32,393 nt of DNA, taken from assembly GCA_964368975.1 (NCBI GenBank), contig CAYJDP010000002.1:2039-34431 (forward strand), in the 5' to 3' direction. The notes below the pieces were generated by a model. That model made no database searches. It was not told the DNA's origin and saw nothing but the letters and a program-made list of their open reading frames with translations. The position numbers and the translations under genes are program-made. This DNA comes from an uncultured Muribaculaceae bacterium (lineage in GTDB: Bacteria > Bacillota_I > Bacilli_A > RF39 > UBA660). Below, piece by piece: positions 3,278-30,138 of this stretch; within the stretch, counting starts at the first letter, position 1; each line of letters starts with the position of its first letter.

Positions 3278-4105
3278 ATGAATATTACATTTACAGATAT
3301 AGTTACTGTATTAAGAGATATTGCGGATATTTTGTTAGTATGGTTAATAATTTATTTTATATTAAAAAACATTAAAAATAATGTTAAATTATCTTTAATA
3401 TTTAAAGGGGTTGCGATAGTAGTTTTATTAAAAGTTGTTAGTGATTTCTTTGGGTTTACTACAATTGGAGTTTTATTAGAATATGTTATTCAATGGGGAC
3501 CTATTGCTTTAATTGTAATATTTCAACCAGAGATTAGATCTATTCTTGAACAACTTGGAAGAAGTCAATTACTTGGAAGACATAAAGTTTTAAGTGTTGA
3601 TGAGAGAGAGAGAGTTGTTTATGAGTTAGTAGGTGCAATTGATTATCTTCGTAAAGAGAAGATTGGTGCTTTAATTGTTTTAGAGAGAGATGTTAGTTTA
3701 ATGGATTACATTAATAAGTCTAAGAAGTTATATGCTAATTTAAGTAGTGACTTGTTAATTTCTATTTTTTACAATGGTAATCCTTTACATGATGGTGGTG
3801 TTATAATACAAGGTAATACTATTACTTGTGCGGGAGCTGTTTTTCCAACAAGTGATAGCTCTAAATTAAATAAACGATTAGGTACTAGACATAGAGCGGC
3901 ATTAGGGTTAGCTGAAGAAACTGATGCTATATGTTTAGTTGTATCTGAAGAAACTGGTAGAATTTCGGTTTCTGTATCAGGTGAGTTATTATATAACTTA
4001 ACTATTGATGATGTTAGAATGTTATTAATAGATGAGTTAAGACCTAAGAGAGAAATAGATTTAGATGAAGTGGAAGAGGAAGAAATTTATGAAGAAAATA
4101 ATTAA
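3278..4105 (+). CDS. cdaA: Diadenylate cyclase CdaA (DisA_N/DAC domain, three N-terminal TM helices)
   Basis: Hallmark DAC motifs are present: HDGGVII and GTRHRAALG, with SEETG downstream. The N-terminal TM segments and the size (275 aa) are typical of CdaA/DacA. Confidence 0.95.
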   Translation: MNITFTDIVTVLRDIADILLVWLIIYFILKNIKNNVKLSLIFKGVAIVVLLKVVSDFFGFTTIGVLLEYVIQWGPIALIVIFQPEIRSILEQLGRSQLLGRHKVLSVDERERVVYELVGAIDYLRKEKIGALIVLERDVSLMDYINKSKKLYANLSSDLLISIFYNGNPLHDGGVIIQGNTITCAGAVFPTSDSSKLNKRLGTRHRAALGLAEETDAICLVVSEETGRISVSVSGELLYNLTIDDVRMLLIDELRPKREIDLDEVEEEEIYEENN

Positions 4106-5444
4106 AATATTTATGAAAATTATTCGGCTAATTGGTAATTTCTTTGATAAATGGTTAATTACTCCTATTACTAAATTTATTTTAAATTTCATGAGATTAA
4201 TAAAAGGTAATAATAGAAGTTTTGAATCTTTGTTGAAAAAGAAATCTACTATGATAATTACAAGTTTAATACTTGCATTTGGTATTTTTGTAGTAATAGA
4301 TCAAGAATCTAATATTATAATAGATCAATATGCAGAAATTTTATATAATCAACCGGTTACTGCGTATTATAATGAAGAAAAATATGTTGTAGAGGGTTTA
4401 CCTGATGAAGTAGATATTACTTTAATTGGAGATAGAACTCATATATTTTTAGCTAAGCAGGCTCCTTCTAAAGGTGTATCTGTTGATTTAAATGATTTGG
4501 GTGAAGGAAATCATTCTGTTACTTTAAAATATAATCAGAGACTAGAATCAGTTGAATATAAGTTGGATCCTTCAACTGTTACTGTTACAATTTATGAAAA
4601 AGTTAGTGAGACTATTAGTTTGGATTATGATATCTTAAATCAATCTAAATTAGATTCTAAATTATATATTAATAATGTTAAACTTGATAGAAGTGATGTA
4701 ATTATAAAGGGTGCAGAATATAAATTAGATCAAGTTGCTACTGTTAAAGCTTTAGTTGATGTATTAGAAATTGCTAATGCTGATGAAGGAGAAGTAGAAT
4801 TAAAAGATATTCCTTTAGTTGCATATGATACTAATGGAGAAGTTATTGATGTGGAAATTGTTCCTAATTCAATAAATGCAACTGTAGAAATAACGTCACC
4901 TAATAAAACAGTTCCTGTTAGAATTGTTCCAGTTGGAGATGTTGCTTTTGGTAAATCTATTAAAGAAATTACTACTAGTGTGGATAGTGTTGTAATATAT
5001 GGAGAACAAGAAGCTGTTGATAATTTAGATGAGTTAGAGATTGAAATTGATGTAGATGGTCTTGCTGAAAATAAGAATTATAATGTAACAATTAAGAATC
5101 CTAGTGGTATTACTGATGTATCTAGCAAAAGTATTAGTGTATCTATTATTATGGATGACTCTATTACTAGAGAGTTTGATAATATATCTATAGGTACAGA
5201 GAATTTAGATGATAATTATAAAGTACAAGCATTATCTAAAGAAGATAGTTTAATTACAGTTGTTGTTAGTGGTAGTGAATCTAATGTTAATCTATTAGAT
5301 CCTACATCAATAAAAGCGTATCTTGATTTAGAAGGTTATGGAGTAGGTGAATATGAAGTTCCAGTAATTGTATCTGGTGATGATTTAAAATTAACTTATA
5401 CTTCTAAAACTACAAAAGTTAAAGTACGTATTTCTGAAAAGTAG
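4089..5444 (+). CDS. cdaR: CdaA regulator CdaR (YbbR-like repeat protein)
   Basis: It overlaps the cdaA 3' end (ATG at 4089; the in-frame ATG at 4065 is also possible). N-terminal TM anchor followed by about four beta-rich repeats (V-x-V-x-P-x-x-V type) typical of YbbR domains. The position after cdaA is the canonical one. Confidence 0.85.
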   Translation: MKKIIKIFMKIIRLIGNFFDKWLITPITKFILNFMRLIKGNNRSFESLLKKKSTMIITSLILAFGIFVVIDQESNIIIDQYAEILYNQPVTAYYNEEKYVVEGLPDEVDITLIGDRTHIFLAKQAPSKGVSVDLNDLGEGNHSVTLKYNQRLESVEYKLDPSTVTVTIYEKVSETISLDYDILNQSKLDSKLYINNVKLDRSDVIIKGAEYKLDQVATVKALVDVLEIANADEGEVELKDIPLVAYDTNGEVIDVEIVPNSINATVEITSPNKTVPVRIVPVGDVAFGKSIKEITTSVDSVVIYGEQEAVDNLDELEIEIDVDGLAENKNYNVTIKNPSGITDVSSKSISVSIIMDDSITREFDNISIGTENLDDNYKVQALSKEDSLITVVVSGSESNVNLLDPTSIKAYLDLEGYGVGEYEVPVIVSGDDLKLTYTSKTTKVKVRISEK

Positions 5445-5491: not shown

Positions 5492-5519
5492 TTGACATAT
5501 GGGTATGCTATACTTTAAT
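5492..5519 (+). promoter_or_regulatory. Promoter of the TasA-like fibre operon
   Basis: TTGACA (5492-5497), 16 nt spacer, TTTAAT (5514-5519). An overlapping extended -10, TGcTATACT (5506-5514), is an alternative. Both lie inside the track's N-terminal extension (5499), which supports the ATG at 5538. Confidence 0.5.
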
Positions 5520-5537
5520 AGTAAAGGTAGTGATTAT

Positions 5538-6110
5538 ATGCGTGAGAATACATTAAAGTTTATATTGATAGTTTCAATACTATGTTCGGTGTTTGCTATT
5601 AGTGTATCCTATGCAACATTTTCAGCGTTACTAGTAATTGATGGAACTGCAACAGTTGCCAGTAAAAACTGGAGTATTTATTTTAGTAACTTAGATAGTA
5701 CTAGAATATTTGGTAATGCTGTTGAAGTGGTTAGACCATCTTTTAATAGTGATTCTACAATGTTAAATAATTTTGATGTTGAGTTTTATGCTATGAATGA
5801 TGCTGTTGAATATGAATTTGATGTTGTTAATTCAGGTTCATTTGATGCAATTATTACTACTTTAGATAAATCTACTCCAACTTGTGTTGGTTCTGGTGTT
5901 AATCAGATTGTAGATGAAAATTATGTGTGTAGTCATATAGATTATAGATTATCATATACTGATGGAACTATTGTTGATGTTAATGATACTTTAAATGCAG
6001 GAGAAACTAAAACTGTTATTTTAAGAGTAAGTTATACAGGTAATAATACTCCAACGAATCCAGTAGATATTACTAATCTTAATTTATCTGTGATATATAC
6101 ACAAAATTAA
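5538..6110 (+). CDS. TasA/camelysin/BsaA-like secreted protein with SipW-type signal peptide, paralog 1 (AT-rich copy)
   Basis: N-terminus is basic, then a hydrophobic helix, then SYATFSALLVIDGTATV, resembling the A-A-F-x motif at the TasA cleavage region. Downstream YEFDVVNSGSFDAII resembles the TasA-family PGD...F.(V)xNxGS(L/F)DA block. SD-like AAAGGTAGTGAT lies upstream of the ATG at 5538. Confidence 0.7.
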   Translation: MRENTLKFILIVSILCSVFAISVSYATFSALLVIDGTATVASKNWSIYFSNLDSTRIFGNAVEVVRPSFNSDSTMLNNFDVEFYAMNDAVEYEFDVVNSGSFDAIITTLDKSTPTCVGSGVNQIVDENYVCSHIDYRLSYTDGTIVDVNDTLNAGETKTVILRVSYTGNNTPTNPVDITNLNLSVIYTQN

Positions 6111-6134
6111 ATTCAAAATTTGAGAGGAGATTTT

Positions 6135-6737
6135 ATGAAATCAGAAAAACAAGTAAAAGTTTTAGCAATAGTTGCAATTTTAATTGCAGTGGTAGGATTA
6201 TCTTTAGGGTTTGCTGCATTCTCTGAAACGTTACAAATTAACGGGACTGGGGAAGTTTCAGCTGCTAATTGGGATATTCATTTTGAAAATTTAGCTGCAG
6301 GTGTTACTTCTGGTACAGCTGTTGAAGTTACTGCTCCAGCGATTGATGGAACTACTACAGTAATTGAAGATTATTCAGTAAGATTCCAAACTCCAGGCGA
6401 TTCTATTAGTTATAGTTTTGATGTTGTAAATGGTGGATCTTTTGATGCTGAAATTACATCTTTATCAGAGTTAGCTACTATTCCAGTTTGTACTGGTGTT
6501 AATGCTACTACTGGATTAGTAGATGGTACTAACGTTTGTGATAACTTAGTTTATACATTAACTTATGCTGATTTAACTCCAGTTGCAGTTACTGATACAT
6601 TAGCATCAGGGGCAACTGCAAGTATGGTTTTAACACTTACTTATACAGGTGCTGTTGTTACTGATCCTTCGTTACTACCAGCAGATACTGTTAATATTAC
6701 AGGTCTTGGTGTAACAATGGTTTATACTCAAGATTAA
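6135..6737 (+). CDS. TasA/camelysin/BsaA-like secreted protein with SipW-type signal peptide, paralog 2 (likely major subunit)
   Basis: GAGGAG lies 7 nt before the ATG at 6135. It contains LGFAAFSETLQINGTGEV and PGDSISYSFDVVNGGSFDAEI. It is collinear with paralog 1, including two conserved Cys and the C-terminal VYTQ(N/D). It is visibly richer in GCT/GCA/GGT/ACT codons than its neighbours. Confidence 0.75.
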   Translation: MKSEKQVKVLAIVAILIAVVGLSLGFAAFSETLQINGTGEVSAANWDIHFENLAAGVTSGTAVEVTAPAIDGTTTVIEDYSVRFQTPGDSISYSFDVVNGGSFDAEITSLSELATIPVCTGVNATTGLVDGTNVCDNLVYTLTYADLTPVAVTDTLASGATASMVLTLTYTGAVVTDPSLLPADTVNITGLGVTMVYTQD

Positions 6738-6776: not shown

Positions 6777-7901
6777 ATGAAGACTAGTCATATTAAATTG
6801 ATATTAATAGAAGTAGTTTTAGTTGTACTGGTTCTTTTGAATATTTTTTTCTCTATAATTACTAATGTATTTTTAGTTAATATTATTTTAGCTTTATTTT
6901 GTGGTTTAATAATTTTTTTATTAGGATTTGAAAAGGAACGAGGTCGTTATAAAACGGATATGATTATGTCTGTTGTTATAGTAACTTTTATTTTTCAAAT
7001 TATATATTTTGTTTCAGGTCTTATTTTTGGATATTTAAAAAGTGGATATAGTTTAGAATTTGTTGATATAATAATGAATATACTACCATTATTAATTACT
7101 ATTTTTGTGTGTGAAGTTTTTAGATATTCAATTAATAGAAAAGGGGATAACTCTGTAATAGTATTGATTTTATCAGTTGTATTATTTACATTGATAGATA
7201 TTATGTTACAGATTATTATTATAGGTAATATTTCTAAAGTTAATTTATTTGATTTAGTTGGTAATGTTATATTTTTTAGTGTATCTAAAAATATTTTATT
7301 GACTTATATGACTACTAAAATTGGATATTCTCCAGCTATAGTTTTTAGATTAATTATGGAACTACCTATTTATATTTTACCGATTATTCCTAATATTAAT
7401 GAGTATTTTGATACTGTAATTATGTTTATATTTCCTTTTATAGTGTTATATATATTTAATAAAACTTATACTAAGATAAAAAAAGAAGTTGTAGTTTCTA
7501 GGAAGAAATATAAGTTCGCCTCTTATATAATGATTTTATTAATTATTTTTATAGTATTTTTTACAAGTGGGGTTTTTAGATTTTATGCTTTAAGTATAGG
7601 ATCAGGTTCTATGGAACCAAATATAGATACTGGAGATATTGTTATCGTTGATAAAGGTATTTCTATAGATTCAATTAAAGAGGGAGACGTTTTAGTCTAT
7701 AATAAATTTAATAAGGTTGTTGTTCATAGGGTTATTGAAGTAGTTGATAATGGTAAAGATATTATTTTTTATACTAAAGGAGATAACAATGATGAAGATG
7801 ATAATTATGTAGTTGTTGAAGATGAAGTAATTGGTAAGACTTTATTTAGAGTTAGATTTTTAGGTTATCCAACTTTATGGTTTAATGAAATTCTTACTTA
7901 G
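6777..7901 (+). CDS. Type I signal peptidase (S26, ER/archaeal/SipW-type Ser-His) fused to a roughly 255 aa N-terminal polytopic membrane domain
   Basis: The C-terminal roughly 115 aa carry GSGSMEP (Ser278, codon 7608-7610), VVVHRV (His317, codon 7725-7727) and TKGDNN, the SipW/Sec11-type boxes. The N-terminal 255 aa form about 7-8 hydrophobic helices with no recognised motif. GGAGG RBS is present. Confidence 0.8.
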   Translation: MKTSHIKLILIEVVLVVLVLLNIFFSIITNVFLVNIILALFCGLIIFLLGFEKERGRYKTDMIMSVVIVTFIFQIIYFVSGLIFGYLKSGYSLEFVDIIMNILPLLITIFVCEVFRYSINRKGDNSVIVLILSVVLFTLIDIMLQIIIIGNISKVNLFDLVGNVIFFSVSKNILLTYMTTKIGYSPAIVFRLIMELPIYILPIIPNINEYFDTVIMFIFPFIVLYIFNKTYTKIKKEVVVSRKKYKFASYIMILLIIFIVFFTSGVFRFYALSIGSGSMEPNIDTGDIVIVDKGISIDSIKEGDVLVYNKFNKVVVHRVIEVVDNGKDIIFYTKGDNNDEDDNYVVVEDEVIGKTLFRVRFLGYPTLWFNEILT

Positions 7902-7920
7902 ATAGTTTGGGGTGATAAGA

Positions 7921-9030
7921 ATGAGACAAGTTAAGTATGAAGGTTTTGAGAAACAATTTGTTGTAAAAAGAAAAATTAAAAGAAGTTTTATTAAGAAAAC
8001 TATTTTAATTTTTCTTACAATTATTCTATTTTATCTTTCTGTTTTAGCAGGTTTATATACATTTAAAGTGGAAAATGATTATATTGGTTATAATGAAAAA
8101 GGTACTATTGATTATAAGGTTTATTTAAAAGATAATAGTTATTACGGTGAAGAGTTTTTCACTAAAAGTGATAATATGTCTTTTGTTTCTAATTTAATTA
8201 AAACTATTAATGTAGATTTTATATATGAAATTAGTGCATTAGAAGAAATTACTAATAGTTATGATTATAATATTTCTGCTGAATTGTTTATATATGATAA
8301 AGATGATCAAACAAAAGTTTTGTATTCGGATAAAGAAATATTAAAAGAAGTTAATGTTGATAGTTTTGATAAAAATAAGTATATTGTTAAAGATAGTATA
8401 GATGTAGATTATGATTATTATAATGAACAGGTATTAAACTTTAAAAAAGATTATTCATTATCTGTTATTAGTGAGTTAATTCTTACAATGAATGTTCAAT
8501 CTAAATTAGAGGTAAATGGAAATAGTTCTTCTAATAATAGCGATATTAAAGTTAGTATTCCATTAACTGTTCAAACGTTAGATATTAATATGGCTACTAG
8601 CGAATTTAATAATCCTTTAAAATTAGGTAGTACAATTAGTAATGTTAATTTTTTTAATATTATGATATTTAGTATTTTGTGTTTATTAACAATAATAACT
8701 ATTACATTATTTTTCTTAGTATCTAGAAATGTTAAGAAAGATATTTATCAACAGACAATTAAAAAATATTTAAGACAGTATGATAGAGTAATTATTGCTA
8801 GTAAACAACCAAATCTTAATGAAGCAAGATTTGATCAAAAAATTAGAATTATGTCTATTGAGGAGTTAATAGATGCTCATGATACTTTAGGTAAACCTAT
8901 ATTATATTATGAAGTAGTTCCTAACGAGAAGAGTTATTTTATTATAATTGCTGATGGTGTTTTATATAAACTTACTATTAGTAGAGCTTATTTAGAAAAG
9001 CAAGAAATGGAAAAAAAGGCTAGTTTATAG
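7921..9030 (+). CDS. Two-TM membrane protein, DUF5305-like (large extracytoplasmic loop, roughly 100 aa cytoplasmic C-terminal domain)
   Basis: ATG at 7921 follows GGGGTGA; the GTG at 7912 is also possible. TM1 is ILIFLTIILFYLSVLAGLYTF and TM2 is IMIFSILCLLTIITITLFFLV. The architecture and the position next to a SipW-type peptidase match my recollection of DUF5305 proteins. The family assignment is from memory, not a search. Confidence 0.6.
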   Translation: MRQVKYEGFEKQFVVKRKIKRSFIKKTILIFLTIILFYLSVLAGLYTFKVENDYIGYNEKGTIDYKVYLKDNSYYGEEFFTKSDNMSFVSNLIKTINVDFIYEISALEEITNSYDYNISAELFIYDKDDQTKVLYSDKEILKEVNVDSFDKNKYIVKDSIDVDYDYYNEQVLNFKKDYSLSVISELILTMNVQSKLEVNGNSSSNNSDIKVSIPLTVQTLDINMATSEFNNPLKLGSTISNVNFFNIMIFSILCLLTIITITLFFLVSRNVKKDIYQQTIKKYLRQYDRVIIASKQPNLNEARFDQKIRIMSIEELIDAHDTLGKPILYYEVVPNEKSYFIIIADGVLYKLTISRAYLEKQEMEKKASL

Positions 9031-9040: not shown

Positions 9041-9094
9041 GTAATAATTTAATTCATTAATAATATATTTAATTAGAAAGTGGAGGTATTATTA

Positions 9095-10195
9095 ATGAAA
9101 AAGTTATTTGTAATATTTAGTTTATCTTTATTATTAGTAGGATGTGGTAGTTATGGTGAAAACGATGTTTTATATGATTTGAATGAAATGAATGATGATA
9201 TGGAAGCTTATGTTGCTACTGGTACTTTAGATATTTTAAATAATGATCAAATGTATAATTACGATGTTGAAGTTAGTTATAAGAAAGGGGATTATTATAG
9301 AGTTATTTTAACTAATACTGATAATAAATATACTCAAATTATTCTAAAAAATGATGAAGGAGTTTTTGTACTTACGCCTGCTTTAAACAAGAGTTTTAAA
9401 TTTCAAAGTGAGTGGCCTTATTCTGATTCACAGAGCTATATAATTTCTTCAATTATTGCAGATATTGATAGTGATAAAGATAGGGAATATAAAGAAGTTG
9501 ATAATGGATATGAATTTATTACAAAAATTAATTATCCGAATAATGATAAATTAGTTAGACAAAAGATTTTATTAGATAAAGAATTAAGTGTTAAAGAAGT
9601 TACAGTATATGATTCTAATGATGTAGAAATTTTAAAAATGAGTTTTTCTAATATTGATTATGAACCTAATTTTTTAGATGATCATTTTGATTTAGAGGCT
9701 ATTATGAAAGAGTTTGCACCTGAGGAAGAATTAGTAGAGGACAATAGTGAAGAAAATAATAATGCTCAAGATGAGACAGTTGATGAAGATAGTGTCGAAG
9801 AAGAACAGGATAAAGCAGAAGAAGATACTGAAATTGATAGTGAGGTTACTGGTTTATTAGAAGATTCAATATATCCTTTGTTTATACCAGATGGTACTAA
9901 ACTAGTTAGTGAAGAAGAAATTGTTATGGATGATGGTAAGCGTATTATTATGACGTTTGATGGAGAAAAGTCGTTTCTATTAGTTCAAGAAACAGTTAAA
10001 GCAGAGGATGAAATGGTAGTTATTCCTACTTTTGGAGAACCTTATCAACTTTTAGATACTCTTGGGGTTATGACAGATAATTCACTTACATGGCATACTG
10101 GTGGAGTTGAATATTATATTGTCAGTGATGTTTTAAGTACTAATGAATTAATTGAAGTTGCTCAATCTATTAGTGTTTTACCTACTATGAAGTAA
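9095..10195 (+). CDS. Lipoprotein: LolA-like (lipoprotein-sorting-fold) N-terminal half, acidic linker, DUF4367-like C-terminal domain
   Basis: MKKLFVIFSLSLLLVGC-GS is a clear lipobox, with GGAGG upstream of the ATG at 9095. The N-terminal half resembles COG2834/YdcC-type proteins. The linker is E/D-rich (EEELVEDNSEENNNAQDE...). The C-terminal ...GVEYYIVSDVLSTNELIEVAQSI resembles DUF4367 ends. Domain calls are from memory. Confidence 0.6.
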   Translation: MKKLFVIFSLSLLLVGCGSYGENDVLYDLNEMNDDMEAYVATGTLDILNNDQMYNYDVEVSYKKGDYYRVILTNTDNKYTQIILKNDEGVFVLTPALNKSFKFQSEWPYSDSQSYIISSIIADIDSDKDREYKEVDNGYEFITKINYPNNDKLVRQKILLDKELSVKEVTVYDSNDVEILKMSFSNIDYEPNFLDDHFDLEAIMKEFAPEEELVEDNSEENNNAQDETVDEDSVEEEQDKAEEDTEIDSEVTGLLEDSIYPLFIPDGTKLVSEEEIVMDDGKRIIMTFDGEKSFLLVQETVKAEDEMVVIPTFGEPYQLLDTLGVMTDNSLTWHTGGVEYYIVSDVLSTNELIEVAQSISVLPTMK

Positions 10196-10219
10196 AAAAG
10201 AGTTTACCTCTTTTTTTTA
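10195..10219 (+). terminator. Rho-independent terminator
   Basis: AAGAG (10198-10202) pairs with CTCTT (10208-10212), extended by A/T pairs, followed by T8. Confidence 0.5.
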
Positions 10220-10246
10220 CTATGATATAATTAAAGGGGTGATAAT

Positions 10247-10744
10247 ATGAAAAAGGAAAACAATTCAAAATTAAGTGTAGATAAAGATATTAGAGGGGTA
10301 CTTATAACAATTGGAGTAGTATTTTTATTTATAACTGTATTCTATTTTATTTCTTTATATTTAAATAATAGTGATAGTATAGATTATAGTAGTACTGAAG
10401 GTGAAGCTTATATACAATATGATGAAATATTAGCTGGATCTAGTTTTACTATTAACGAAGGTGAATATATAGTAGTTTATTATGATAAAATGAACGAAGA
10501 GTATGCTTCTAATTTATATTCTACTATTGCAAATTATCAATTATTAGATGATAGTTTAAGAATATACAGTGTAGATATGAGTGATGATATTAATAAAAAT
10601 TATTTGGCAGATGAATCTACATTGGATGTGGATAATGTTAATGATTTGAAAATTAATGATGCTACTTTAATTAAATTTAATAATGGAGAAATAGTAGAAT
10701 CAGTTACTAGTAGTGATTCAATTGTAGAGTACTTAAATAAATAA
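10247..10744 (+). CDS. N-terminally anchored exported protein, unknown function (possibly a thioredoxin-like fold without CxxC)
   Basis: GGGGTGA RBS and one TM helix (VLITIGVVFLFITVFYFISLYL). The beta-alpha-beta style pattern (YIVVYYDK ... IYSVDMSD ... TLIKFNNGEIVE) is reminiscent of a Trx fold, but there is no Cys. Confidence 0.6.
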   Translation: MKKENNSKLSVDKDIRGVLITIGVVFLFITVFYFISLYLNNSDSIDYSSTEGEAYIQYDEILAGSSFTINEGEYIVVYYDKMNEEYASNLYSTIANYQLLDDSLRIYSVDMSDDINKNYLADESTLDVDNVNDLKINDATLIKFNNGEIVESVTSSDSIVEYLNK

Positions 10745-10766
10745 CTTCTTTTAGAAGTTTTTTATT
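10743..10766 (+). terminator. Rho-independent terminator
   Basis: AACTTCT (10743-10749) pairs with AGAAGTT (10753-10759), followed by a T-run. Confidence 0.6.
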
Positions 10767-10816
10767 TTTATATTAAGAAATTTATGTTATTATAGATATA
10801 GAGCGTAGAGGTGGAT

Positions 10817-12028
10817 ATGAAATACAAAATAAAAAATAACATGAAAAAATTCGTTAAAAGTAAAGATACTTTTACAATGATTGAAGTTGTAATAATAATA
10901 ATAGTAGCTATGATATTAGGGGTTTCTATAGGGGCGGTAATATCTTATCATAATAGTTTTGATGATAATAATATACAAGAGTTTATTGATACTTACAATG
11001 ATATTTCGAATAATTATTATGATGAAGTAGATAAAAATTTATTAATTGAATATGCGATTGCAGGAATGATTGAATCATTAGATGATCCTTATTCTGAGTA
11101 TTTAGATATAGAAGAAAGTGAATCTTTTAACCAAAGTGTAAATGGTAACTATGTTGGTATTGGTACTACTGTTGGTGTAAGTGTAGATGGTGTTGCTTAT
11201 ATATTAGGAGTATTTGAAAATTCTCCTGCTAGTGAAGTTGGTTTAGAAGTTAATGATATTATTTTAAAAATCGACGAAGAAGATGTTAGTAATACAGATA
11301 TGGATACGTTAACTGGATTAATAAAAGGTGAAGAAAATACTAAAGTAACACTTCTTATTAAAAGGGGTGATGAAGAACTATCTTTTGAATTGGAAAGAGC
11401 AGTAGTAGATTTACCATCTGTTACTAACGAAGTTATTGAAGAAGATGGTAAAAAAATTGGAGTATTAAGTGTATCAATGTTTGCTGCAAATACATATGAT
11501 CAATTTGAAGAACAATTAAATGAATTAGAAGATCAAGATATTGAATCTTTGATAATTGATGTTAGAGGTAATCCAGGAGGTCATTTAACCCAAGTTAGTG
11601 ATATGCTCTCATTGTTCTTAAATGAAGGCGATATATTATATCAACTAGAAACAAAAGGTAAAATTGAAAAATATAAAGATGAAACTGAAGAAAGTAGAAA
11701 CTATCCTATAGTAGTTTTAGTTGATGGTTCTTCAGCTTCTGCTTCTGAATTATTTACTGTAGGATTAAAAGAATCTTATGAAAAAATAGATATTATAGGT
11801 GTTAATACTTATGGTAAAGGTTCTGTTCAAGAAGCTTATGATTTAGATTCTGGTTCTACATATAAATATACTGTGCAAAAGTGGTTATCTCCAGAAGGGA
11901 ATTCTATAGATGAAGTTGGAGTTGCACCTACTGAAGAAGTTGTTTTGGATGAAATATATTTTACTGATCCAACTATAGAAAATGACAATCAATTTCAAAA
12001 GGCTTTAGAAATTTTAAAAAACAAATAA
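10817..12028 (+). CDS. S41 family C-terminal processing peptidase with PDZ domain (Ctp-like)
   Basis: It contains VRGNPGGHL and DGSSASASE (the S41 catalytic Ser box), a PDZ-like GLEVNDIILKIDEEDV segment and the Lys region YGKGSVQ. AGAGGTGG lies upstream of the ATG at 10817. Confidence 0.9.
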   Translation: MKYKIKNNMKKFVKSKDTFTMIEVVIIIIVAMILGVSIGAVISYHNSFDDNNIQEFIDTYNDISNNYYDEVDKNLLIEYAIAGMIESLDDPYSEYLDIEESESFNQSVNGNYVGIGTTVGVSVDGVAYILGVFENSPASEVGLEVNDIILKIDEEDVSNTDMDTLTGLIKGEENTKVTLLIKRGDEELSFELERAVVDLPSVTNEVIEEDGKKIGVLSVSMFAANTYDQFEEQLNELEDQDIESLIIDVRGNPGGHLTQVSDMLSLFLNEGDILYQLETKGKIEKYKDETEESRNYPIVVLVDGSSASASELFTVGLKESYEKIDIIGVNTYGKGSVQEAYDLDSGSTYKYTVQKWLSPEGNSIDEVGVAPTEEVVLDEIYFTDPTIENDNQFQKALEILKNK

Positions 12029-12049
12029 GAGTCTAGATAGACTCTTTTA
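12027..12049. terminator. Bidirectional terminator between convergent genes
   Basis: AAGAGTCT (12027-12034) pairs with AGACTCTT (12039-12046), with A/T runs on both sides. It overlaps both stop codons. Confidence 0.6.
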
Positions 12050-12584
12050 ATTTACTTATTATTACTAGTTGTTGATTTTCTATATTGCTACACGTTGTTA
12101 AAATAAGATTTGTTTCATTATTTTTTTTAATTTCAATATTTCCATCTTTTATTTGGTTACTTATAGAATTTATTTGATATGTATATGTTATACTGTTATG
12201 ATTTAAATATATTAAATCATTTTCTTTTATGTTAAATAATTCATTGAAGTATGCTGTATTTCCTTCGCCGGAGTGTGCCGCTAAATAAATATTAGTATTT
12301 GGTATTGGTGGTATAGTAGAGTCACTTAATATTTCTACGTTTTTTTCTACAGTATTTTCATTACTAATAGGGTCATACAGTAAATATGTTTTATTATTTA
12401 TTGTTAATGTTGCAATACTAGTTATTGGGTTTTTCAATTTTTTTTGCTCTTCATTTATTTCTGTTAATTTAGGTGTAGATATAGTATTTTCTAATGGTTT
12501 GATTTTAGAAATACTATTTTCATTTATGTTTATATTAAATATATTAATAATTATTAGAAAGATTAGGGTTATTTTTTTTAACAT
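12033..12584 (-). CDS. Sortase-family transpeptidase, atypical (no Arg anywhere in the protein)
   Basis: N-terminal TM anchor, His box IYLAAHSGEG, and Cys box LILTTCS (Cys165, codon 12090-12092). The protein contains no arginine. The position where the catalytic Arg normally follows the TLxTC box reads NIENQQLVIISKL. It overlaps the upstream adhesin gene by 41 nt. Confidence 0.8.
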   Translation of the reverse strand: MLKKITLIFLIIINIFNININENSISKIKPLENTISTPKLTEINEEQKKLKNPITSIATLTINNKTYLLYDPISNENTVEKNVEILSDSTIPPIPNTNIYLAAHSGEGNTAYFNELFNIKENDLIYLNHNSITYTYQINSISNQIKDGNIEIKKNNETNLILTTCSNIENQQLVIISKLKESI

Positions 12585-14001
12585 AACATATTCCTATACA
12601 AATTATTAAAGAAATTAAAGAGATTGTAGATTTTTTAGTTGTATTAGTATCAGGTACTGGTATTTTATAATCATATAATTCGATTGTTTCTGGATTGTTA
12701 TCTTCTATTATTATTTTAAAATCATCTGTTTCTTTATATCCAGCAGTTGTATTTAATTGTTTAACTGTATAAGTTCCATAAGGTAAGTTAGCTGTTGCGA
12801 TACCTAAATTATTTGTTGTAATAGTCTCTACTAAGGTGTTTTTGTTATTATATATTTCAAATGAAATATTTTCTTCTGGTATAAAGTTATTAGTAGTACC
12901 ATAGTATTTTTTTAGAGTTATTTCTTTTTCTATAACTTTATTTTCTACAGTTAATTCTATATTTGTGTTATCTTGTCTTGGAAATACTTCATAGATTGTT
13001 TCATTTAGAGTGTAACCGATTCCTGCTTTTATTTCTTTTATATAATATTTTGCGTATTGAATATCATTTATTATAGTTTGATTATTTTCATCAATTGTTA
13101 CTTGATAAAGTTCATTCATTTGATTATCGTATACTTGATATACTGAGCCTATAAGTGATGCTTCTCCACTAGGAGTTATACTATTAGTATCTTTATCTAT
13201 TTTTGTTATTTTTATTTCTGTATTTTTAACTGCTACATTAAATGATATATTAATAGCCGGTATATCACCTACAGTCATTAATGTTTGTGATGTATTTGAT
13301 TGATAATAAATAATTGGTTTATTATATGCTGGTTTATTTTTTGTTAGTGTTATAGTTTCGATTCCACTAGAGATAGGATTTATTGTTATTGTATCTTTGC
13401 TAATAGTTGCATTGTTTGATGTTACTGTATATTCACTTAATCCTGAATACGATATATTTACTAAATTGTTTGCTGCACTATAATAAGTTTTACCATCAAT
13501 ATTATTTTTCGTTGTATAATTGTTAATTAAATTATTTATTTCGTTTATTTCATTATTAAATGGTTCTATTCTTTGACCGTTTAAAGTTTGTGTAAAATAA
13601 TAGTCTGCATTAGGATCTGCTACTTGCCATATCATTAATTGTGTTATTGCATACCATTTTGAATCAGTATGATTTTGATATCCATATCCAAAATGAGATA
13701 TAAGTGCTATTTTATTTTGTTGTTCAATAGTTAAATTATTTGGATTGAAAGTTGGTGTATAAACTGAATTAGCATTAAACATTACAAATGGCTCTATACA
13801 ATATGCATGTTGATTAGAGTGATTTTCTCTTACTATTTTACCTGTTAAATAATAAGTTATTCCGGCCTTTTCTTTATTTAAATACACTCCAGGAATTGTT
13901 TCTGCTTCATAAAAAGTAGTTGATTCTGCTTTTACATTTATATTATTAGTAAAAGATAATACTGCTACAATTATTATTAAGAAAATATTTATTTTTTTCA
14001 T
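12544..14001 (-). CDS. Cell-wall-anchored adhesin: signal peptide, thioester (TED/TQXA-like) domain, two CnaB/SpaA-type domains, C-terminal sorting signal VPDTN
   Basis: AAGGAGGAA RBS and signal peptide MKKINIFLIIIVAVLSF...VKA. AYCIEP (Cys68, codon 13798-13800) and AITQLMIWQ (Gln121) fit the TED motifs [YFL]C-hydrophobic-[DENQ] and TQxA-hydrophobic-W. Two segments are typical of CnaB folds: IKITKIDKD...GSVYQVYD...YYIKEIKAGIGY and YGTYTVKQLNTTAGY. The tail is VPDTN (12643-12657), then a hydrophobic helix, then KK. Confidence 0.85.
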   Translation of the reverse strand: MKKINIFLIIIVAVLSFTNNINVKAESTTFYEAETIPGVYLNKEKAGITYYLTGKIVRENHSNQHAYCIEPFVMFNANSVYTPTFNPNNLTIEQQNKIALISHFGYGYQNHTDSKWYAITQLMIWQVADPNADYYFTQTLNGQRIEPFNNEINEINNLINNYTTKNNIDGKTYYSAANNLVNISYSGLSEYTVTSNNATISKDTITINPISSGIETITLTKNKPAYNKPIIYYQSNTSQTLMTVGDIPAINISFNVAVKNTEIKITKIDKDTNSITPSGEASLIGSVYQVYDNQMNELYQVTIDENNQTIINDIQYAKYYIKEIKAGIGYTLNETIYEVFPRQDNTNIELTVENKVIEKEITLKKYYGTTNNFIPEENISFEIYNNKNTLVETITTNNLGIATANLPYGTYTVKQLNTTAGYKETDDFKIIIEDNNPETIELYDYKIPVPDTNTTKKSTISLISLIICIGICYVKKNNPNLSNNY

Positions 14002-27361: not shown

Positions 27362-27739
27362 ATGTTAGTAGATGTATTGTTAGCTATATTTATTTTTATT
27401 ATTACTTATTTTATACTAGCTTTTATATATAGATTTTATATTATAAAAAAGTTAAAAAATGATAAGAATAATTTACCTAGTGAGATATTATATATATTAA
27501 ATGTATATAAAATAAATAAAGATGAAGTTGATTTAGATAAATTAATTAAATTGGTTATATTAGGAACTACATTTATATTTTCTTTATCTATTACTGTTGC
27601 TTTATATGGAGATAATTATGGTGATCAGTTGATTATAGGACTTATATTGATGATTCCTTTAATATTTATTTGTTATCATATTATTGGGTGCTACGCTAAG
27701 AAAAAGTTAATTAAAAATAAAAAGAAAGTTGAGGAGTGA
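27362..27739 (+). CDS. Small three-TM membrane protein, unknown function, first ORF of the T-box-controlled leuS transcript
   Basis: AAGGAGGAAG lies 5 nt before the ATG. Three hydrophobic helices and a basic tail. The TGA stop lies 5 nt before the leuS ATG. Confidence 0.65.
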   Translation: MLVDVLLAIFIFIITYFILAFIYRFYIIKKLKNDKNNLPSEILYILNVYKINKDEVDLDKLIKLVILGTTFIFSLSITVALYGDNYGDQLIIGLILMIPLIFICYHIIGCYAKKKLIKNKKKVEE

Positions 27740-27744
27740 GAAAA

Positions 27745-30138
27745 ATGGATATAAAAAAAATAGAGGCTAAATGGCAAAAGTATTGGATAGATAATAAGGT
27801 GTTTGAAGCAGATAATAATAGTGATAAAGAGAAATATTATTATTTAGTTGAGTTTCCTTATCCATCAGGTGCTGGTTTACATGTTGGGCATGCTAGAAGT
27901 TATACTGCGTTAGATAGTTTAAGTCGTAAGAAAAGAATGAATGGATATAATGTTTTATTTCCGATGGGGTGGGATGCTTTTGGTGCTCCTGCAGAGCAGT
28001 TTGCTATTAAGAATAAAATTCATCCTAGTAGTGCTGTTAGAGAATGTATTAAAACTTTTAAAGGACAAATGCAATCACTTGGGTTTTCACTTGATTGGTC
28101 TAGGGAGTTTTCTACTACTGATCCAGATTATTATAAGTGGACACAGTGGCAATTTTTGAAGTTTTTTGAACATGGACTTGCTTATAAAGCTAAAAAGAAT
28201 ATTAATTGGTGCCCTAATTGTAAAATAGGTTTATCTAATGAAGATTCTAGTGGTGGAGTATGTGAGAGATGTGGAGAGAAAGTTGTTCAAAAAGAAAAAG
28301 AGCAATGGATGCTTAAAATGAGTGATTATTCAGAACAGTTATTAGAAGGATTAGATGATACTAAGTTTCATGAGAGAATTAAGACTGCTCAAGTTAATTG
28401 GATTGGTAAAAGTGTTGGGGCAGAAGTTAAGTTTAAGTTAGATGAAGTTGATGAAGAATTAGTTGTTTATACTACTAGAGTTGATACTTTATATGGTGTT
28501 ACTTTTATGGTTGTTGCTCCAGAACATCCTTTAATAGATAAATATAGTGAAAATATTTCTAATATGGATGAGGTTATTTCTTATAGAGATATTGCTAATA
28601 GCAAGAGTGAGTTTGAAAGAGTAGAATTAAATAAAGAAAAAACTGGTGTTAAAATAGAAGGTATTAGTGCTATTAATCCAGCTACTGGTAAAAATATTCC
28701 TGTTTATATTTCTGATTATGTAATGATGACTTATGGTACTGGTGCTATTATGGCAGTTCCTGCACATGATGAGAGAGATTATGAGTTTGCTAAGAAATTT
28801 GGTATTGAGATTATTCAGGTTTTAGAAAATGAAGATGGTGTATCAGATAAAGCTTTTGTAGGGGACGGAGTTCATATTAATTCAGATATTATTAATGGAT
28901 TAAATAAGAGTGATGCAATTAATAAAATGTTAAATTGGTTAGAAGAGAATAATCTTGGTAAGAGTAAAACTAATTATAAATTACAAGATTGGGTATTTTC
29001 TAGACAGAGATTTTGGGGTGAACCAATTCCAATAATTCATTGTGATGATTGTGGTTATGTTGCTGATAATAATTTACCAGTAGTTTTACCAGATGTTGCT
29101 AATTATGAACCTACTGATGATGGGGAAAGTCCATTAGCGAATATTACTGAATGGGTTAATGTTAAGTGTCCTAAGTGTGGGAAAAGTGCTAAAAGAGAAA
29201 CTGATACTATGCCTAACTGGGCTGGATCTAGTTGGTATTATTTAAGATATATGGATTCTAAAAATACCGAGGAGTTTGCTAGTAGTGATGCTTTAAAATA
29301 TTTTGGTAAAGTAGATTTTTATAATGGTGGTATGGAACATGCTACTAGACATTTACTTTATGCTAGATTTTGGAATCAATTTTTATATAATATTGGATTA
29401 GTACCAAATAAAGAACCTTTTGAAACAAGAATAGCTCATGGGATGATTCTTGGAGAAGGTGGAGAAAAAATGAGTAAGTCTAAAGGTAATGTAGTTAATC
29501 CAGATGATATGGTTGAATTATATGGAGCTGATAGTCTTAGATGTTATGAGATGTTTATTGGGGACTATGAAAAAGAAGTTGTTTGGAGTGAACAAGGTCT
29601 TAGAGGATGTAGACGTTTTATAGATAGAGTTATTCGTATTGGAGAGAAAGTTAATTCAGATAATGGGTATAGTAAATCTTTAGAGAAGTTAATTCATAAA
29701 ACTATTAAGAAAGTTACTGATGATTATGATAATATTAAATTTAATACTGTTGTATCGGCTTTAATGATTTTATTAAATGAATATGATAAAGAAGATGCTA
29801 TTACTAAAGAAGATTATCGTGTATTACTTATGTTATTTAATCCAATTGCTCCACATATAACAGAGGAATTAAATGAGAAATATAATTTAGGAGAAGCTAT
29901 TTGTAAAAGTAGTTGGCCTGTATATGATGAAGATATGTTAGTTGATGAATCAATGGATATAGCTGTTCAAGTAAATGGTAAAGTTAGAGCTACTATAAAT
30001 ATTTCTATTAATGATAGTGAAGAAGTTATAAAAGAAAAGGCTTTAAGTGATGAAAATGTTATTAAGCATACAGAAGGTTTAGAAATAATTAAAATAATTG
30101 TAATAAAAGGTCGTATTGTTAATATAGTTGTAAAATAA
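27745..30138 (+). CDS. leuS: Leucine--tRNA ligase
   Basis: N-terminal IEAKWQKYW, HIGH-type motif (HVGHARSY), KMSKS present, CP1 editing insertion, Zn-binding CxxC pairs. GAGGAG lies 8 nt upstream of the ATG at 27745; the GTG at 27736 is less likely. Confidence 0.97.
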   Translation: MDIKKIEAKWQKYWIDNKVFEADNNSDKEKYYYLVEFPYPSGAGLHVGHARSYTALDSLSRKKRMNGYNVLFPMGWDAFGAPAEQFAIKNKIHPSSAVRECIKTFKGQMQSLGFSLDWSREFSTTDPDYYKWTQWQFLKFFEHGLAYKAKKNINWCPNCKIGLSNEDSSGGVCERCGEKVVQKEKEQWMLKMSDYSEQLLEGLDDTKFHERIKTAQVNWIGKSVGAEVKFKLDEVDEELVVYTTRVDTLYGVTFMVVAPEHPLIDKYSENISNMDEVISYRDIANSKSEFERVELNKEKTGVKIEGISAINPATGKNIPVYISDYVMMTYGTGAIMAVPAHDERDYEFAKKFGIEIIQVLENEDGVSDKAFVGDGVHINSDIINGLNKSDAINKMLNWLEENNLGKSKTNYKLQDWVFSRQRFWGEPIPIIHCDDCGYVADNNLPVVLPDVANYEPTDDGESPLANITEWVNVKCPKCGKSAKRETDTMPNWAGSSWYYLRYMDSKNTEEFASSDALKYFGKVDFYNGGMEHATRHLLYARFWNQFLYNIGLVPNKEPFETRIAHGMILGEGGEKMSKSKGNVVNPDDMVELYGADSLRCYEMFIGDYEKEVVWSEQGLRGCRRFIDRVIRIGEKVNSDNGYSKSLEKLIHKTIKKVTDDYDNIKFNTVVSALMILLNEYDKEDAITKEDYRVLLMLFNPIAPHITEELNEKYNLGEAICKSSWPVYDEDMLVDESMDIAVQVNGKVRATINISINDSEEVIKEKALSDENVIKHTEGLEIIKIIVIKGRIVNIVVK

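Follow-up and report, generated by a model that had tools for sequence, protein, structure and literature searches.

A Sec11-type signal peptidase fused to an eight-helix membrane domain, a candidate dedicated pilin peptidase of an AbpX-like fibre module

What does a signal peptidase do with eight transmembrane (TM) helices that plain SipW enzymes lack? The question is raised by one open reading frame (ORF) in a stretch of 32,393 nucleotides (nt), hereafter the window, taken from contig CAYJDP010000002.1 of the genome assembly GCA_964368975.1 (positions 2,039 to 34,431, forward strand). In this ORF a SipW/Sec11-type peptidase is joined to the C-terminal side of a polytopic membrane domain, the N-domain, and two small genes for TasA-like proteins stand directly upstream. 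We propose that the product is the dedicated pilin peptidase of an AbpX-type donor-strand fibre operon in an uncultured Bacillota bacterium of low GC content, in which the eight-TM domain would serve as a non-catalytic docking scaffold, and we give this proposal about an even chance of being right. For the scaffold role itself our confidence is moderate to low; the N-domain is probably not a second protease. All coordinates are collected in Table 1.

The DNA of the junction (7440-7640) is a single open frame that runs into the motif GSGSMEP (codons 7599-7619), with the codon of Ser278 at 7608-7610 and that of His317 at 7725-7727. Residues 249-367 matched TIGR02228, the archaeal/Sec11-type signal peptidase I model, with 98.2 bits for a cut-off of 51.85. 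In Pfam, the catalytic module scored only just over the thresholds of S26 (25.4, threshold 22.9) and S24 (24.5, threshold 23.3). The Bacillus SipW equivalog NF046067 gave 82.3 bits, far under its cut-off of 190, and thus the peptidase is not a SipW orthologue. Ser278, His317, Asp336 (in KGDNN) and Asp342 are kept in 100% of 86 distinct fused homologues, the set on which all conservation values given here were calculated. We take Ser278, His317 and the Asp residues to be catalytic, with no catalytic Lys, a role assigned from established knowledge of SipW and Sec11.

The hydropathy scan and the AlphaFold2 model (predicted local distance difference test, pLDDT, 91.4; predicted template modelling score 0.88) alike gave eight TM helices in residues 1-244. 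With the anchor helix of the peptidase, the fused protein therefore has nine; hydropathy gave no C-terminal TM helix. The preliminary description of this DNA had confined the SipW-type module to the C-terminal third of the protein, behind about eight TM helices, and hidden Markov models (HMMs), hydropathy and AlphaFold2 all confirmed this layout. Loops rich in Lys and Arg occur at 51-61, 117-125 and 229-246, the last being the cytoplasmic loop that precedes the anchor helix. By the positive-inside rule, the N-terminus is predicted to be cytoplasmic and the catalytic domain to lie outside. It is strongly supported, as far as sequence can tell, that the C-terminal part is a catalytically intact Ser/His/Asp peptidase of the SipW/Sec11 type, with a predicted position on the outer face of the membrane. 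In the model of the N-domain, the outer loops form a small two-stranded sheet (86-88 with 203-205). An internal duplication of four plus four helices was not detected in this domain.

The N-domains of the 86 homologues are 17-40% identical to that of the window protein. Mean pairwise identity is 26% for the N-domain and 41% for the catalytic domain. Despite this divergence, R116 was found in 86/86 proteins and E113 in 85/86. Other conserved positions are P202 (99%), G81, P205 and P220 (97% each), Y177 (95%), N101 (90%), N172 (85%) and D141 (D or E, 84%). The near-invariance of E113 and R116, together with a fusion that is obligate, suggests that the N-domain is under selection. No His or Cys of the N-domain is conserved among the 86 homologues, in agreement with the earlier statement that it offers no such candidates for a second active site.

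The fused protein is one of a large family. More than 275 full-length homologues of about 375 amino acids (aa) came out of a database search, 33-49% identical over about 100% of the query, and one of them bears the name 'signal peptidase I [Candidatus Faecisoma merdavium]'. When a library of 1.84 billion cluster representatives (clusters at 50% identity) was searched with an N-domain profile, 1523 clusters passed E<=1e-3, of which 344 also passed E<=1e-30; nearly all of the top 150 have the length of the fused form, about 375 aa. A scan of species-representative genomes (one genome per species, query a six-sequence alignment) gave at least 435 loci. In the 80 best of these species-representative loci, to which all counts out of 80 refer, every ORF was scanned by HMM, and N-domain and peptidase were in a single ORF in 80/80. 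The linker and the anchor helix are also conserved among the relatives. Shorter matches, of 230-275 aa, appear to be mostly contig-end fragments. Searched alone against Pfam, NCBIfam and the PDB sequences, the N-domain had no match. It had been considered that the N-domain might prove to be a family of known character that is commonly joined to S26 peptidases: such joining is indeed the rule, but the family is uncharacterised.

Host labels in the family include uncultured Bacilli, Tenericutes, Mollicutes, Erysipelotrichaceae, Clostridia and Oscillospiraceae, and also a Chloroflexi bin. One member comes from a complete genome, that of Phosphitispora sp. TUW77 (NZ_CP156677.1, positions 2166883-2174010), presumably a cultured strain. 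Several metagenome-assembled genomes (MAGs; loci L013-L015, L017, L019, L027, L036, L045 and L073) are labelled 'uncultured Muribaculaceae bacterium', a name of the Bacteroidota, yet carry the Bacillota-type module. These labels look like automatic misassignments and are unfit for taxonomy.

The substrates that we propose are the products of the two upstream genes, which are 39% identical to each other. Both have a mature isoelectric point (pI) of 4.05 and two Cys. Low pI and two Cys are stated traits of the AbpX family in a January 2026 preprint (doi 10.64898/2026.01.04.697558). Members of the pilin family start with a signal anchor, after which comes the motif G-F-A-A-F-S-x-x-L-x-I-x-G, itself strongly conserved, and have two invariant Cys. 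Cleavage of pilin 2 is predicted at GFA↓AFSETL, so that its mature form would begin with AFSE; the mature pilin 1 would begin with TFSA, which has no acidic residue. The AFSETL that follows the predicted cut resembles QWSETL, the start of mature AbpX, whose cleavage is likewise a prediction in the AbpX study. An alignment of the pilin family with Pyrodictium abyssi AbpX, whose sequence was taken from the supplement of the same preprint, gave an hhalign probability of 92% (E 6.6e-7, 156 columns). The AlphaFold2 model of pilin 2 (pLDDT 91.9) had as top Foldseek matches in the PDB Pyrobaculum AbpA (7UEG, probability 0.97), FimF, the Saci_0406 thread (7PNB) and TasA (8AUR). At E<=0.1, Pfam gave for the window pilins no TasA/camelysin match (PF12389) and only a weak match to DUF7507. 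The neighbours had been called TasA-like from the outset, and hhalign and Foldseek bear this out by placing them as AbpX-like members of the TasA superfamily.

Beside the module, 13/80 loci also encode large proteins of about 300-1330 aa that match the pilin HMM, for example L002:9615-13592, L016:5667-7139, L020:5275-7134 and L007:12281-13849. The window locus has none. They are possibly tip adhesins or anchors built on the pilin domain.

Downstream of the peptidase gene, the DUF5305-like protein has a TM helix, an extracytoplasmic domain, a second TM helix (about 247-290) and a cytoplasmic C-terminal domain. It had no direct match to PF17231 at E<=0.1; a full-length alignment with the product of L004:11158-12282, which has a Pfam DUF5305 match, shows 37% identity (E 1e-78). 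The four genes of the window module (5499-6110, 6120-6737, 6777-7901 and 7912-9030) are separated by gaps of 9-39 nt. The same arrangement recurs in ten context loci and the 80 genome loci, with one to five paralogous small genes (about 170-215 aa), the fused peptidase and DUF5305. Pilin genes were found in 76/80 loci, a DUF5305-like gene in 75/80 and both in 71/80, and the flanking genes vary. Six genomes have two complete modules (L024/L033, L016/L051, L018/L058, L022/L065, L031/L071 and L017/L045). The paralogous peptidases of these genomes share 24-27% identity in their N-domains and 33-50% in their catalytic domains. A separate peptidase for each module, with a diverged N-domain, would fit a system-specific recognition.

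Some loci depart from this pattern. In L026:1740-4029 and L027:1722-3972 the order is inverted, with DUF5305 ahead of the peptidase, and a second N-domain ORF begins at the end of locus L026 (6486-7028). A phage-type integrase gene lies directly upstream of the pilin genes in L007:7700-8641 and L008:6117-7058. The adjoining integrases and the different flanks in every locus hint that the four-gene module is mobile.

The mechanism that we propose begins with two pilin precursors, each with a signal anchor at its N-terminus, which presumably cross the membrane by way of Sec. The peptidase would most likely cut them at G-[F/Y]-A↓[A/T]-F-S, a site predicted by analogy. The cut would free the N-terminal strand (AFSETLQING...), which may then insert into the groove of the neighbouring subunit and in this way build the fibre. 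A private peptidase would be needed because the aromatic residue at P2' makes TasA a poor substrate of LepB-type enzymes; according to PMC10269814, the Phe at P2' of TasA is incompatible with LepB and needs SipW. The N-domain would bind the pilin signal anchor sideways within the bilayer and so offer the cleavage site to Ser278/His317. In addition or instead, it may bind the two-TM DUF5305 partner, and peptidase, N-domain and DUF5305 may form a small holoenzyme resembling the multi-subunit signal peptidase complex of eukaryotes.

Topology and conservation suggest how such docking could work. Glu113 and Arg116, low on TM4, would line a polar pocket together with Asn101, Asp141, Asn172 and Tyr177. 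If the fold is Rce1-like, the inverted orientation of the domain would make this pocket open outward, under the catalytic domain. By a purely topological argument, E113, R116 and Y177 would then sit at the base of the cavity, and N101 and D141 near its rim. A docking platform was one of the guesses of the preliminary description, and the data are compatible with it. A secretion conduit, another of these guesses, is unlikely because the pilins carry ordinary cleavable Sec-type signal anchors and because a bundle of eight helices is small for a channel.

Several points weigh against a docking scaffold. Glu113 and Arg116 sit where TM4 approaches the cytoplasm, a long way from the active site on the outer side. 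Folding, the binding of lipids or contact with a cytoplasmic partner would explain their conservation just as well, and a near-invariant Glu and Arg within a membrane helix are also to be expected where catalysis or transport takes place. In fold, the domain resembles Rce1 weakly (E 0.4-0.8, TM-score 0.42-0.49, root-mean-square deviation, rmsd, about 7 Å). Docking is not intrinsically required either, since plain SipW processes TasA without such a domain. The docking role is conjectural, the polar pocket is drawn from topology and conservation only, and the cleavage site is predicted by analogy.

The conserved charged pair could instead belong to a second active intramembrane enzyme, either a diverged glutamyl protease of the Rce1/CPBP type or a pilin-modifying transferase. 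The protease might degrade the released signal peptide or trim the pilin a second time, much as the CPBP enzyme myxosortase acts on membrane-tethered surface proteins. We find this doubtful, although structure comparison gives it some ground. The preliminary description had suggested a Foldseek search with the N-domain, and this search returned weak matches to Rce1 and APH-1, none of them significant. The top matches in the PDB were four chains of Methanococcus Rce1 (4CAD; probability 0.51-0.80, alignments over 262-266 columns with an rmsd of 7-8 Å). APH-1 came next with a TM-score of 0.32, and all further matches were clearly worse. APH-1 is reportedly a non-catalytic relative of the Rce1 fold. 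The N-domain and Rce1 are both eight-TM bundles. Also, the near-invariant Glu and Arg on TM4 and the conserved polar residues on TM5-TM7 fall on the helices that bear the catalytic residues of Rce1. Moreover, a CPBP enzyme that serves the sorting of surface proteins is known, namely myxosortase (PMC11980579).

The residues needed for such catalysis argue the other way. Rce1 requires a Glu, two His and an Asn, whereas the N-domain has no conserved His and no counterpart of the catalytic His, His and Asn. Of the CPBP motifs EExxxR, FxxxH and HxxxN, it has only E113-x-x-R116, in which the spacing differs (E-x-x-R and not E-E-x-x-x-R). No match to PF02517 (CPBP) was obtained at E<=10 for any of 32 members. 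With hhalign, the N-domain family reached a probability of 0.2% against a vertebrate Rce1 profile and of 0.7% against one bacterial CPBP, both templates being shallow. The first was built from a human RCE1 query (effective number of sequences 1.8). The second was L074:3-716, from a motif search of 92 loci that gave one genuine bacterial CPBP and, as false positives, two polysaccharide deacetylases. A phmmer search with the same human RCE1 query did not reach 4CAD. The orientation also differs, as the termini of the N-domain are predicted to be inside and those of MmRce1 are reported as lumenal. With no PF02517 match, hhalign probabilities below 1% on shallow templates and no counterpart of the catalytic residues, membership of the N-domain in CPBP/Rce1 is not supported.

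Alternatively, the N-domain, perhaps with DUF5305 as a partner, could be a platform for fibre assembly or anchoring and work as a minimal usher. In that case the basal subunit, or a pilin still uncut, would be retained at the membrane, and each cut would be linked to the insertion of a donor strand. The gene content speaks for this idea: the fused peptidase and DUF5305 are the sole conserved non-pilin genes of the module, and between or beside the four genes of the window there is no chaperone, usher, TapA-like factor or anchor gene. The sheet predicted between the conserved outer loops, G81...F86 and P202-x-x-P205, could accept a donor strand by strand addition. Moreover, the anchoring and assembly factors of AbpX fibres are stated as unknown in the AbpX preprint (doi 10.64898/2026.01.04.697558). 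On the other hand, recombinant AbpX is reported to form fibrils in vitro with no membrane factor, and the most conserved residues of the N-domain face the membrane interior or the cytoplasmic side and not the outside. For an anchoring role, other loci carry SLH or LPXTG anchors (same preprint). A contact of the N-domain with the fibre is conjectural, and we judge this platform improbable.

That the fusion is a sequencing or assembly artefact or a chance ORF, by a missed stop or frameshift joining two genes as the preliminary description had warned, is refuted for practical purposes: seven consecutive A at 7481-7487, shortly before the domain boundary, and one relative (L011, L012) with an in-frame TAA exactly at the linker would allow it, yet both domains share one frame, a linker and an anchor helix in the 80/80 loci and in the more than 275 database proteins.

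Two unusual relatives deserve mention. The one short match inspected, the apparently split protein P0137 (L011 and L012), was seen in two independent metagenomes. Its in-frame TAA lies in the cytoplasmic linker (L011:856-858), and past it the reading frame continues unchanged through the anchor helix and the peptidase, where no new start is obvious. A pseudogene, read-through of the stop or an error could each explain it, and its sequence does not look like a two-gene version. P0159 (812 aa), from the representative library, has an N-domain and the beginning of a peptidase, which ends behind the Ser motif and gives way to about 500 aa resembling a 5'-nucleotidase or metallophosphoesterase. A chimeric assembly or a disrupted gene is the probable cause.

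Coming back to a dedicated pilin peptidase with a docking scaffold, a bolder version can be stated, although only tentatively, as we think it unlikely in full. The N-domain would be a new Rce1/APH-1-like family without the protease histidines. It would form, with the Sec11-type domain and DUF5305, a holoenzyme that is a prokaryotic counterpart of the eukaryotic signal peptidase complex. This holoenzyme would recognise the pilin anchor in the membrane and couple cleavage to chaperone-free donor-strand polymerisation. If this were true, AbpX/TasA-type fibres would, in many uncultured gut Bacillota, be assembled by the peptidase itself.

The module bears on a question not yet settled, namely how donor-strand fibres of the TasA, AbpX and Tafi types form at the membrane when no chaperone-usher system takes part. 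Since no other non-pilin genes of the module are conserved, the fused peptidase and DUF5305 are obvious candidates for the assembly machinery. The family is concentrated in uncultured Bacilli, 'Tenericutes' and Clostridia of the gut and rumen, which implies that many such organisms make TasA-like surface fibres. Specialists of TasA-type fibres already know peptidases of this kind, and the family is large and uncharacterised. E113 and R116 offer a direct handle for mutagenesis of a domain that has no Pfam family or known function.

Table 1. Features of the fused peptidase gene, its module and the following genes (positions in the window)
Feature	Position	Strand	Details
AbpX-like pilin 1	5499..6110	+	203 aa precursor; N-terminal signal anchor; predicted cut SYA↓TFSALLVIDG; matches pilin HMM
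AbpX-like pilin 2	6120..6737	+	205 aa from TTG start; database form from Met6, 200 aa
Fused peptidase ORF	6777..7901	+	ATG start; 374 aa
N-terminal eight-TM domain	6777..7508	+	Residues 1-244; AlphaFold2; no Pfam family
E113-x-x-R116 codons, TM4	7113..7124	+	Sole near-invariant charged residues of the N-domain
Ninth TM helix, the peptidase's own N-in/C-out anchor	7515..7586	+	Residues about 247-270; hydropathy and charge
Catalytic domain, extracytoplasmic (predicted), SipW/Sec11-type	7587..7901	+	Residues 271-374 and stop codon; TIGR02228; invariant catalytic residues
DUF5305-like protein	7912..9030	+	372 aa; proposed accessory subunit of the peptidase
Lipoprotein	9080-10195	+	Weak GerS-like N-terminal half; very acidic linker
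Membrane protein without family	10247-10744	+	165 aa
CtpB-like S41 protease	10811-12028	+	PDZ domain

Around the module, the window has further genes of note. Directly upstream of the pilin genes (3278-5444), cdaA, for a diadenylate cyclase with the CdaA N-terminal TM domain, overlaps a four-repeat YbbR/CdaR gene by 41 nt. Three genes, which may or may not belong to the operon, follow the DUF5305 gene straight away on the same strand (9080-12028, + strand; Table 1). A second surface adhesin or pilus system, dependent on sortase, lies 3 kb downstream of the AbpX-like module on the - strand (12033-14001), where a sortase gene overlaps a gene whose 485-aa product contains thioester (TED) and SpaA prealbumin-like domains.

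The GC content of the window is very low, at 18-33% per kb, the GC skew is strongly positive in almost every kb and most genes are on the + strand. Long ORFs under translation table 11 tile the window, for example a full-length leucyl-tRNA synthetase (27736-30138), and thus the organism uses the standard bacterial code and not a Mycoplasma-type code. A scan for promoters and terminators was uninformative in this AT-rich DNA (49 matches for 45.8 expected).

Among published systems, the closest is the dedicated signal peptidase I (SPase I) of AbpX loci in bacteria and archaea, which according to the January 2026 preprint (doi 10.64898/2026.01.04.697558) has ten TM helices. That preprint gives this feature one sentence and proposes no function. 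It also reports AbpX homologues in Bacillota and Chloroflexota, and it describes DUF5305 as a likely accessory subunit with two TM helices, likened to the eukaryotic complex. Our literature search gave no further paper that discusses the extra helices of such peptidases. The preliminary description knew of no described function for the fusion. This is right in that no function has been proposed, but an SPase I with ten TM helices in AbpX loci, with its DUF5305 partner, had already been noted. The architecture is therefore not unknown, but of a kind only just noticed. The enzymes of AbpX loci are polytopic, of the TIGR02228 type and located beside AbpX-like pilins and DUF5305, in Bacillota, Chloroflexota and archaea. 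The window enzyme differs by its nine predicted TM helices, with none at the C-terminus, for a published number of ten; the difference might stem from a kinked TM7 or from other members having a C-terminal helix. Hosts in our set are mostly MAGs of uncultured gut-type Bacilli, 'Tenericutes' and Clostridia. The likeness to the published peptidases (A0A1M6GRN4, WP_338249487.1) was drawn from their description and locus content, not from N-domain sequence.

SipW of Bacillus subtilis is of the same Sec11-like Ser/His/Asp catalytic type. It is also the private peptidase of a TasA-superfamily fibre operon and cuts before an A-F-x-acidic N-terminus. Nevertheless, SipW is about 190 aa long, with one TM helix at either end; it lacks the eight-TM domain, and DUF5305 has no counterpart in the tapA-sipW-tasA operon.

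In haloarchaea, the dedicated S26 peptidase TafD is genetically required for the processing of Tafi pilins, and TafG, a DUF5305 protein, was proposed to assist it (PMC11821415, PMC12337348). As in the window, peptidase, DUF5305 and two or three small pilin genes form a compact cluster. However, TafD lacks an N-terminal eight-TM domain; it spans the membrane with four TM helices and carries an additional extracellular domain at its C-terminus. The Tafi system is archaeal, with pilins exported via the Tat pathway.

Finally, the eukaryotic signal peptidase complex (Sec11, Spc3/SPC22-23, Spc2/SPC25 and Spc1/SPC12) likewise sets a Sec11-type subunit amid additional TM segments and adds an accessory subunit whose beta-rich domain lies on the side away from the cytosol. 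Its accessory parts have no detectable homology to those described here, which makes the resemblance a functional analogy only. The eukaryotic complex serves general secretion, whereas the window enzyme carries its extra helices in one chain and belongs to one operon.

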